Source: Eledone cirrhosa (taxonomy: Eukaryota). Taken from it: 64,000 nt of DNA. Positions 41,780 through 44,757 of this stretch are shown here, in pieces. A model generated the notes under the pieces. It made no database searches. It was not told the DNA's origin and was given only the letters and a program-made list of their open reading frames with translations. A program made the translations under genes and the position numbers. The stretch's first letter is position 1. Every line of letters starts with the position of its first letter. The stretch is from positions 65,658,001 to 65,722,000 of the forward strand of contig OZ024746.1 in assembly GCA_964016885.1 (NCBI GenBank). Reading direction: 5' to 3'.

Positions 41780-44757
41780 GGTATTATAGCTGAAAAACTA
41801 CGAGAACTATGGATCGGAGATATCTCAAAAGAAGAAAACAAATCAAGAAAGGTATGGCAGCAGAAACAATTATTTCTCGATGAATATGCTGCAAATTACG
41901 GTAAAGACTCTGGAACCCTGAGAAAAAGCATTAAAAGTGGACAATCTCATCAACACAACATACGCCAGAACACGTGCCAACACAAACACTCACCTTACCT
42001 TGAATCAAAGAAGAACTACGGTAATAACTCTTCGCTTTTTCTACAAAAACACCCTATCGCACACAACATGAACAAAAAGCACAAACACGATAGGTATTCC
42101 TTTGACCAGACCATGAGAAGTAGTAAAACCAGGAGATCATTCTCAAGATCTCAACAGAGACTACCAACAAGGAATGTGGAAACAAAACGTAGAATAACCA
42201 GATCACTCTCAAGATCTCAACAGAGATTGCCCACAAGAAACTGGACGAAAAAACGATCTAAACCTGAAAGCAAACCTAGGTCATTTTCCCAGATTGTTAA
42301 AAATAATGCTAACAGGAAGAAAAATAATATACAGAATACCAAAAATAGGACAAAATACATAACGAAACCAAATATAATATCACGACCAAAAGTTCATCAA
42401 GCGAACACCAACAGGAATATAAATCCTGAACAGAGAAAAATTCATTTTTTAACGTCAGGACAACAAAAACCGGAAAAAGAAAAACTCCAGGAGGAAACAT
42501 ACCCAAAAACAGCTGTACACGTAGATCCTAAAATAATTAATTTATCTAAAAGAGATCTTGACAATGATGAAATGCAAATTCTGTCAAAAGGACTGAAATT
42601 CACACCGACTCCAACAGTCAACCACCAAGAACTGAAGGAGGATACCCAAGAATTCTGTCGAAAATTACGTCTTGTAGAATTCTTCGCTGATAAAAATAAT
42701 GAGAGTGATGAATCACTAGTAAAGAATAAATCAAATTTCACTCCGCCAAAAGGAAGAAATATCTATCTCGACCAATACATTGACATCCTGTCTAAATTTC
42801 CTCTTAGACATAATACTAATGTTAGGCCAAACATTAACAAATCAGAAATGTCTGCACTTAAACGTATACAAAATGATAAAACAATAATAATTAAACAAGC
42901 AGATAAAGGGGGTGCAGTTGTTATAATGGATACTGAATACTACAAGGATTTGGTTGAGGAACAACTGAAAGACACAACATTCTATCATGAAATACCGTCA
43001 AATATAGACCACAACATCATGAAGAAGATCAACAACCTGGCTTCAAAATACCACAACTCATTTACTGATAAGGAAAGAGACTACATCACCAATTTTGAGC
43101 CGAAACCCAGCAACCTGTATGGCCTACCGAAAGTTCACAAGTCAAAAGAAATACAACTGGCAGTAAGAGAACAAAACAGTGAGTACATTAAATTATTACA
43201 CCCAAAAGACTTAAAACTTAGACCTATTATAGCTGGTCCAACATGCCCCACTCACCGTCTAAGCAATTTTGTTGACATTATTTTGAAACCACTATGTATT
43301 CACATACCCAGTTTCATCCGGGATGATATCGACTTCCTGTCCCATCTTCCCAAAACCACGGAAACGAATTCACTTCTACTCAGTTTTGATGTGGTAAGCC
43401 TTTACACCAACATTACACATGATTTAGGAATAAAGGCGGTTAAATACTGGGTGGAAAAACATAGAGAAGTGATTCCCATTAGATTCACAGCGCCATTTAT
43501 ATTAGACGCAGTTAAACTTATTCTGGAAAACAACACTTTCTTCTTCAATGGAAAGAATTACATCCAAATTAGAGGCACAGCGATGGGAACGAAGTTTGCT
43601 CCCGTTTACTCGAACTCTGTAATGGGATATTAGAACAACAACTCTACCAAGAAATAGAGGAAAAATATAGTACTGACTTTAGAAAGTACATTGAAAAATC
43701 TTGGAAGAGATACCTTGACGACTGTTTCATCATCTGGACAGAATCTCTAGATACTCTGGATGAGTTCAATATCCTCCTGAATAACCTACACCCATCTCTC
43801 CAATTCACAAAAGAGATGAGTAGGACCAAATTACCATTCCTAGATATAATGATAATCAAAAACGACACCACCATTACCACGGATATATATTATAAACACA
43901 CAGACACCCATCAATATCTGAATTTTAAGTCGTGCCATCCACCTCATACAAAACGCAACATCCCATACTGCCTAGCCAGAAGAATTTGTACCATTGTAGA
44001 AGATACGAATACCAGGTACAAACGCCTAACAGAACTAAGAGAATTTTTGCTCAAACAAAAATACCCATCTCTACTTATAGAAAATGGCATACAGCGGGCT
44101 ATAAAAATACCTATACAACAACTTAGAACAACCCAAAGAAGAAGAAACCAAGAACTGGTCATACCATTTATAATGACACACAACCCATGTCACCAGAATA
44201 TCTTCAACACTGCCAAAGCAAACCTACCGATCATTGCTCAAAGTAATGAATTAAAAGGCTTAATCACAGATCGATCTTTGACTCTTAGTAAAAGACAGCC
44301 AAAAAATTTGAAGCAATTGCTAACAAAAGCAAAGTTTGACCTTAACAACAAAGACCAATCATTCACTGTATCTAAATGCAATGATAATCGATGCGGCACA
44401 TGTCAATCCATACACGCCGGTCAATATATGAAAACAAAAACTGGAAAAATATTCACAAATGCAAATATGAACTGCAAAAGCAGAAATCTAATTTACTGCA
44501 TTAAATGCCCGAATTGTGAAGAACTATATGTCGGTCAAACTGGAAATGCACTATCGGAACGTGCACGGGTACACCGTCAACAAATCAGAGACCCAAATGT
44601 CCGTCAGATACCCCTAAGCGGCCACCTGGCAACATGTGGTCAGGGAATATTTATAATATTCCCATTCTACAAATTACACAGCCCAAATGAAATCAAGAGA
44701 AAAATCAAAGAAAAGAATTTTATTGATAAATTCAAACCCAAGCTAAATGAACAATAA
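41780..44757 (+). pseudogene. Neptune ORF1 remnant + RT + GIY-YIG with one 1-nt frameshift near 43630
   Basis: [43 protein letters not shown] lacks one T (expected MGYLEQQ); RYLDD; CNDNRCGTC; LIYCIKC..YVGQT. Confidence 0.9.

Follow-up and report, generated by a model that had tools for sequence, protein, structure and literature searches.

The Neptune clade of endonuclease-containing (EN+) Penelope-like elements (PLEs) reportedly goes back to Arkhipova 2006, and the two-ORF PLEs with a frameshift are said to be the Athena/Coprina elements of Arkhipova et al. 2017. In the parts of PMC8557442 drawn on here, canonical EN+ PLEs are called single-ORF, Neptune is paraphyletic, and the legend of Figure 1 allows for a PLE ORF1 that a frameshift with a pseudoknot sets apart, the clade being unnamed in that legend; the drawing itself possibly shows an optional frameshifted ORF1 for Neptune, and an earlier description of a two-ORF Neptune form may be in print. 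Our literature search returned no papers joining Penelope-like elements and ribosomal frameshifting. Here, a 64,000-nt stretch of the Eledone cirrhosa genome (the window) was analysed, and its two PLE families were compared with related loci and proteins. The results suggest that the family signal between ORF1 and the reverse transcriptase (RT) is very probably a programmed −1 frameshift, of which the window holds one defective copy.

Two Penelope-like families in the window

The window, animal DNA with abundant (TA)n, carries two families of PLEs, family A on the minus strand and family B on the plus strand. Their RTs are only 53% identical, and they are therefore separate families, as an initial annotation made from the sequence had held. 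Their features, in window coordinates, are:

34254..35519, minus strand: full ORF1 of family A (ATG at 35519, TAA at 34256-34254; open frame 35537-34254, 427 codons)
within this ORF1, minus strand: N-terminal heptad helix, conserved three-helix domain (about 35279-34848) and low-complexity tail
34314..34320, minus strand: putative slippery heptamer T TTT TTA of family A, 50 nt before PKIINLS, with the RT in −1
32008..34341, minus strand: RT-endonuclease ORF of family A, uninterrupted, with its own in-frame ATG at 34284
39008-36835 (in 36835..39386), minus strand: second family A copy, 5′-truncated, in partial tandem with the full copy
39043-39386: inverted piece of the family A 5′ region, adjoining the truncated second copy
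41780 to ~45330, plus strand: family B element, a 5′-truncated PLE copy
41780..42524, plus strand: family B ORF1 remnant, 5′-truncated at a (TA)n tract, with a basic low-complexity tail and the heptamer
41780-41926, plus strand: last helix of the conserved helical domain of family B ORF1
42445..42451, plus strand: putative slippery heptamer T TTT TTA of family B, His-Phe-Leu in the ORF1 frame
42505..42509, plus strand: A5 run of family B, one base fewer in other copies
42527..44757, plus strand: family B RT, CX4CX2C linker and GIY-YIG endonuclease, interrupted by a 1-nt loss at 43629/43630
44758..45330, plus strand: 3′ untranslated region of family B, ending at a (TA)n tract

A PLE-type RT that has a GIY-YIG endonuclease at its C-terminal end was identified (family A, RVT_1 with E=3.3e-7; family B, GIY-YIG with E=1.3e-6), and the linker fingers (CX2-5CxxC) read CGRTNCGTC in family A and CNDNRCGTC in family B, followed by CxxC-H-H. 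The CCHH and linker spacing was compared by eye with rows from the supplement of PMC8557442, and a partial tandem and (TA)n flanks, features checked for Neptune PLEs, were also seen. Families A and B would be labelled Neptune-type PLEs from their motifs, the tree loci carrying no named references. Rather than the one ORF that canonical EN+ PLEs have, a separate ORF1 with the RT in −1 was found in family A, in the other family B copies and in 10 other loci.

Several further features were observed in the window. In the partial tandem of family A (30673-39386), the repeat unit has a long mixed microsatellite between its 3′ end and 5′ region, and further copies of the 5′ region lie at 30989-30673 and, in inverted orientation, at 39043-39386. 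In family B, a 66-nt tandem duplication was seen in the basic tail of ORF1 (42134-42237, plus strand; 89% over 38 nt). Another RT-like element, its frames broken and interrupted by a long insert, lies at 14288-15545 on the plus strand; it has no Pfam match and may be a Naiad-type PLE. In the 3′ region of family B, a hammerhead-like core (CTGAAGA...GAAA) with a GTAC palindrome was picked out by eye and pattern alone within 45120-45175 (plus strand), the core itself lying at ~45130-45170, with no Rfam match and no support from folding, the Rfam matches obtained all being microsatellite artefacts. Sequencing depth at this core was up more than 10-fold in one run, suggesting that the region is a separately amplified unit.

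The ORF1 domain and its protein family

The initial annotation had aligned 36 residues of family B without gaps to the ORF1 of family A, and this match proved real, with nine identical residues (G, L, W, D, E, S, K, W and Y). It is the best position within the whole 427-aa family A ORF1, is reached by 5 of 5000 shuffles, and the same stretch was matched at E=3.5e-9 by an ORF1-domain profile made without the family B copy. The following tail had been called otherwise unalignable, which did not hold in full, since it aligns to the ORF1-only protein P0101 with 34% identity over 249 aa (E=4e-30).

In the AlphaFold model of family A ORF1, an N-terminal helix precedes an all-helical domain (residues 70-230, pLDDT about 97) and a disordered tail. 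The proposal that this domain is an unrecognised one stood as far as the databases go: Pfam gave no match for family A ORF1 and no Pfam family in more than two of 72 ORF1 members, the ESM Atlas gave no usable match, the PDB searched by sequence returned generic coiled coils alone, at the N-terminal helix (best E=2e-4), and Foldseek against the PDB returned nothing at E<=0.001 for the ORF1 model. A match in a viral structure library (9e-4, TM 0.14) and the best VIA match (Z 9.0, rmsd 6.5, within the common helical-bundle range) were not taken as relatives. Its predicted layout, however, equals that of the in-frame N-terminal domain of single-ORF coral PLEs. In the predicted models, the helices measure 33/47/43 aa in ORF1 and 33/48/46 aa in the single-ORF (PKGL-type) domain, the P[RK]K[FL] loop of ORF1 and the [AP]KGL loop of the single-ORF proteins stand in the same place, and the two models share 17 of 50 top structure matches, all generic bundles. 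The profile alignment of the two was weak (P=0.083), the local score lying above 40 of 40 block shuffles and the global score being reached by 4 of 40. From these models, ORF1 is probably a distant form of the single-ORF PLE N-terminal domain, split off by a frameshift. A dimerising N-terminal helix is predicted for the single-ORF Poseidon protein in the part of PMC11167929 cited here. Judged by its predicted heptad helix, three-helix bundle and basic disordered tail, ORF1 may, by analogy, be a partner produced in excess that has a structural role or packages RNA.

A profile built from two sequences of the conserved domain matched 760 clusters at 50% identity (E<=0.001), and the protein statistics were drawn from the best 150 of them. 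The longest of these 150 has 609 aa, and a motif search found no RT motifs in them; by eye, the tails of two of the 150 (P0086 and P0141) extend into RT-region sequence, and in a Mytilus gene model (P0225) ORF1-like sequence is joined to an RT. The best 120 of 588 RT relatives have at most 839 aa, although 1315 were allowed, and the named ones among the matches listed are molluscan (Mytilus, Saccostrea, Octopus, Solemya, Ylistrum). Only one ORF1 relative was returned by a word-index search, IMG/VR held no match to ORF1 or RT, and none of 380 genomes from a single bacterial order contained a contaminating ORF1. Animal PLEs were also observed inside bacterial genome bins, annotated as symbiont proteins (L001-L043, P0167, P0189, P0253, P0262), which is host contamination of public MAGs.

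In the 92 proteins that continue for 90 aa or more past the domain, Phe-Leu (FL) was found in the last 45 aa of 73 and in the preceding 45 aa of three, the count under 1000 shuffles having a mean of 8 and a maximum of 17; 19 of the 92 have no FL within the last 45 aa. The residue before FL is never K, E, Q, M or W (0 of 73, against a background of 21%), residues that lack T-ending codons, and in 67%, the background being 20%, the residue following FL starts with G.

The ORF1–RT junction and its competing explanations

In the window copy of family B, T TTT TTA is in a phase identical to that of family A and lies 75 nt before PKIINLS, and the frame from 41780 continues into the RT while the −1 frame ends at TAA 42529-42531, all as first described. 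Two accounts of this in-frame state had been offered, an indel in the nearby A-runs and an inverse frameshift that frees an ORF1-only protein, and a comparison with other copies favoured the former. Family B copies were compared over 41780-45300 through contig alignments and listed variants from four of 24 listed runs, belonging to three studies, one run of which (X1) may share the source of the window; the heptamer itself was read in the window copy. One base is absent at 42505 in contigs of 4/4 runs, with gap depth over total depth of 16.2/25.2 in X1, 1727/5095 in X2, 1614/4779 in X6 and 1352/3623 in X7. These shares are similar to those of an undoubted defect at 43629 (30/52, 7047/13430, 8644/16458 and 3798/10279), behind which contigs of 4/4 runs carry an extra C, so that the 1-nt loss noted near 43630 was borne out as well. 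Total depth at 42516 was 16.2, 3611, 1759 and 1392 in the four runs, and further ORF1-tail indels, among those listed, were +3 and +6. With four A's at 42505, the distance from the heptamer to the first RT motif becomes 74 nt, which places the RT in −1, just as the 50 nt of family A do; the ORF1 frame of the other copies would, from the variant, end at TAG 42522-42524, 23 codons past the heptamer. In P0101 and three close relatives the stop falls 22-23 codons past FL, and the nearest family B ORF1 relatives are ORF1-only proteins ending 22-28 codons past IHFL or similar. These data support that the in-frame ORF1-RT fusion is a defect of the window copy, which has one extra A in 42505-42509 through an insertion or an assembly error.

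Conservation along the deep ORF1 alignment was nowhere high enough for scanning DNA, and related loci were therefore found via the RT (43 + 80 loci). The ORF1 profile matched 8 of the 123 (L001, L044, L045, L049, L050, L051, L052, L055), and L046 from a smaller search and L125 from a genome search brought the total to ten. Nine of the ten have T TTT TTA/G in phase and a −1 RT frame that is uninterrupted between the site and PKIINLS, and the tenth (L125) has an in-phase T TAT TTT. L049 and L050 are one decayed family, and the identity between L045 and L051 is 74%; in the decayed L044 relative L101 the run counts five T's only, and the region is absent from L063 and L122. Across 12 junctions the RT frame starts 0-15 codons upstream of the site, and in 10 of them this frame contains no Met ahead of the first RT motif. 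At the codon level, a check called for in the initial annotation, T TTT TTR was kept at every FL locus read; were FL a mere protein motif, these codons would arise by chance with a probability of 0.124 per family. The ORF1-bearing loci form a single RT clade (support 0.98), which includes L053, whose ORF1 is cut off. Outside this clade, the sites found in the same phase are T6A (L014 and L102), G GGT TTT (L008), G GAT TTT (L012) and A AAA AAC (L086 plus nine more loci). The heptamer is kept well outside families A and B. An in-phase X XXY YYZ heptamer, an upstream ORF open through it and a downstream ORF open in −1 are the marks of a programmed −1 signal, and from these sequence features we infer that programmed −1 frameshifting is the best reading of the junction.

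Two other arrangements were observed among the loci outside the ORF1 clade. In L008 (3222-3900) and L012 (3086-4000), a PKGL-type helical domain lies in a separate ORF with the RT in −1, and their heptamers sit just past the opening of the RT frame; fusion (coral clade) and frameshift forms of this domain both exist. In L102 (1911-3839), a 643-codon ORF1 with SGNH-esterase-like motifs by eye, and without a Pfam match, ends with HFL and 10 codons, its T6A standing in phase before a distant RT.

Three explanations without a forward −1 slip were weighed. The T-run could serve a 3′ splice site as its polypyrimidine tract, the RT being made from spliced RNA or its own ATG and ORF1 from unspliced RNA. 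AG directly follows the T-run in 8 of 12 junctions, which read TTTTTTAG, a good splice acceptor, and the excess of G after FL, the conserved introns of PLEs mentioned in the Figure 1 legend of PMC8557442 and the Met shortly upstream of the first RT motif in family A and in many RT gene calls (callers write M for GTG and TTG too) would agree with it. However, no adjacent AG is present in the other four junctions, where the first AG lies at +13, +20, +24 and +76 nt in phases 2, 0, 1 and 2; splicing needs neither an in-phase T-run, nor an ORF1 open to the T-run, nor a stop at least 10 codons past it; and the G GGT TTT, G GAT TTT and A AAA AAC found in the same phase in other PLEs are not splice acceptors. 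We regard splicing as improbable.

Alternatively, Phe-Leu could be a protein motif near the ORF1 C-terminus and the heptamer its by-product, with the RT translated separately by reinitiation or from an internal start. AT-rich codon use would favour TTT TTA, and in family A an ATG of the RT frame does lie 30 nt past the site; yet the T TTT TTR codon choice at every FL locus read, the missing Met in 10 of 12 junctions and the RT in an open −1 frame at all intact loci come close to refuting this account, which has a very small probability. Even less probable is the inverse slip, in which ORF1 and RT of family B share one frame and the slip frees the ORF1-only protein. It was drawn from the window copy, which is in frame, and single-ORF PLEs with a similar N-terminal domain do exist (L059, L060, P0289-P0292), but it was rejected on the base at 42505, absent from other copies in 4/4 runs, on the stops 22-28 codons past FL in the closest family B ORF1 relatives, and on the coral clade, whose single ORF of ~1050 aa has no heptamer near the junction.

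Stop spacing, RNA structure and a candidate stimulator

A −1 signal would be expected to include a stimulatory hairpin or pseudoknot 5-9 nt downstream; no conserved one was found 3′ of the heptamer in the window elements and 13-14 junctions. Folding z was +0.6 to +1.1 for the window elements and −0.23 on average over 13 junctions, the stem scan gave a combined p=0.015 with 2 of 14 junctions under 0.05, and the pseudoknot scan a combined p=0.29, against 3e-6 in a control clade with A AAA AAC (L080, L082, L093, L094, L104, L107, L109, L118, L123; for example L107:1849-1928). The PLEs of the control clade have an FHNLC motif at the RT start, with no endonuclease seen in L107, and carry an in-phase A AAA AAC, 6 nt and then an H-type pseudoknot, the ORFs overlapping by ~205 codons. 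Compensatory changes occur in both of its stems (six such pairs), with 99% of cells paired and 0 of 500 shuffles. This clade is probably Coprina/Athena-like.

The position of the ORF1 stop was then counted in 109 proteins of at least 250 aa among the ORF1 matches listed, 82 of which have FL in the last 60 aa. The stop lies exactly 10 codons after the heptamer (FL) in 26 of the 82, nearer than 10 codons in only one (45% expected), and at any other distance in at most five proteins each. The nominal binomial p-values of 3e-20 and 5e-13 assume independence and overstate the effect, because proteins with the +10 stop group together on the tree (10 changes, the mean for shuffled labels being 22), although they occupy two separated parts of it. 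A periodicity of stops at 20 and 30 codons was not convincing (3 per bin against about 2). At the DNA level, 6 of 14 junctions (5 families) and L086 have the stop at 10 and none at fewer. Families A and B, whose stops lie 19 and 23 codons past the heptamer, do not have the +10 stop; codon +11 of family A is TGG, and three of its four closest relatives likewise have the stop at 19 and Trp at +11, which fits the loss of an ancestral stop. Gly at codon +3 was found in 26 of 52 proteins without the +10 stop and in 4 of 26 with it (Fisher p=0.003), a hint of an alternative RNA stem in the former. No mention of the 10-codon spacing was found in the literature searched, and the initial annotation had not pointed it out.

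As far as the cited parts of these papers go, a ribosome paused at UGA raised −1 frameshifting by the follower on a slippery heptad in E. coli reporters, with a peak at a 9-codon spacer (PMC6815119), and collided mammalian ribosomes (disomes) are spaced by 10 codons (PMC7397865). The 10-codon stop distance may thus be the spacing of collided ribosomes, suggesting, from sequence conservation, a terminating ribosome as the stimulator. One study saw little ribosome accumulation upstream of mammalian stop codons (PMC13341110), and in SARS-CoV-2 a nearby stop works by allowing the pseudoknot to refold (PMC8168617), again in the parts cited; for these two reasons the collision mechanism is put forward here as a candidate.

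The stimulator is the least certain step, and a second account of it, compatible with programmed −1 frameshifting, has a sizeable probability somewhat below one half: the slip would be real and driven by an RNA structure too variable to detect, the 10-codon spacing reflecting structure length or ancestry. Against this, the 10 residues from FL to the stop are only 10% identical in the 26 proteins (their domains being 34% identical in the median) and yet exact in length; the +10 stop recurs in distant RT clades and behind another heptamer (L053, L102, L086); Gly +3 is rarer where the +10 stop is present; and the same scan did recover the control-clade pseudoknot. For much of the clade, where the stop lies at +10, we consider it the likeliest mechanism, at rather under an even chance, that a terminating ribosome blocks the next one on the slippery site. 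A shade more tentatively, a large animal Neptune-type clade might set its ORF1:RT ratio by collision-driven −1 frameshifting, the stop replacing the pseudoknot and RT output depending on ribosome load.

The proposed model and comparison with known systems

The layout, the phase, the conservation of the heptamer and the extra base are observed, and the following model would connect them through a −1 slip, which we infer. Family B would be a two-ORF, endonuclease-bearing PLE with its RT in −1 behind a conserved T TTT TTA at the end of ORF1. Most ribosomes would finish at the ORF1 stop and yield ORF1 protein, and a minority would slip by −1 on T TTT TTA and yield an ORF1-RT-endonuclease fusion; the window copy would read through only by its extra A at 42505-42509. 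Families A and B, with stops at 19 and 23 codons, would use another stimulator, perhaps a stem starting 6 nt past the site.

If so, an ORF1 that has been overlooked, linked to the RT by a gag-pol-like frameshift, appears to be present in hundreds of EN+ PLE families. Many curated "RT proteins" of the clade are therefore probably missing the N-terminal half that belongs to them, a point of consequence both for annotation and for studies of PLE transposition in vitro. The sharp floor and peak at 10 codons would also make these elements a candidate, natural and eukaryotic, for frameshifting that a terminating ribosome stimulates; in print, we found such stimulation only for engineered bacterial reporters (PMC6815119, in the part cited).

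Compared with canonical EN+ PLEs, which are single-ORF, the elements described here have a separate ORF1 of ~350-480 aa, an RT in −1 and a conserved heptamer of slippery type. They resemble Athena/Coprina in having a coiled-coil-like ORF1 upstream of a PLE RT with a predicted −1 frameshift between the two; however, Athena/Coprina elements have no endonuclease, are telomeric and have a pseudoknot, whereas a GIY-YIG domain, internal (TA)n sites and no detectable pseudoknot at the heptamer junctions were found here. HIV-1 makes an excess of structural protein and a minority of polymerase fusion, the logic proposed here, and its frameshift site uses a downstream stem-loop. The U6A heptamer of HIV-1 gag-pol, given in the part of PMC5737442 cited, is the same as that of these elements, but their ORF1, unlike the HIV protein, has neither a Gag fold nor a zinc knuckle. 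For the stop, the likeness is to the E. coli reporters of Smith et al. 2019 (PMC6815119, in the part cited), which combine a slippery heptad and, one ribosome length downstream of it, a 0-frame stop, without any RNA structure; those reporters are engineered, bacterial and peak at 9 codons, whereas the putative counterpart described here, deduced from conservation only, is natural, animal and set at 10 codons.
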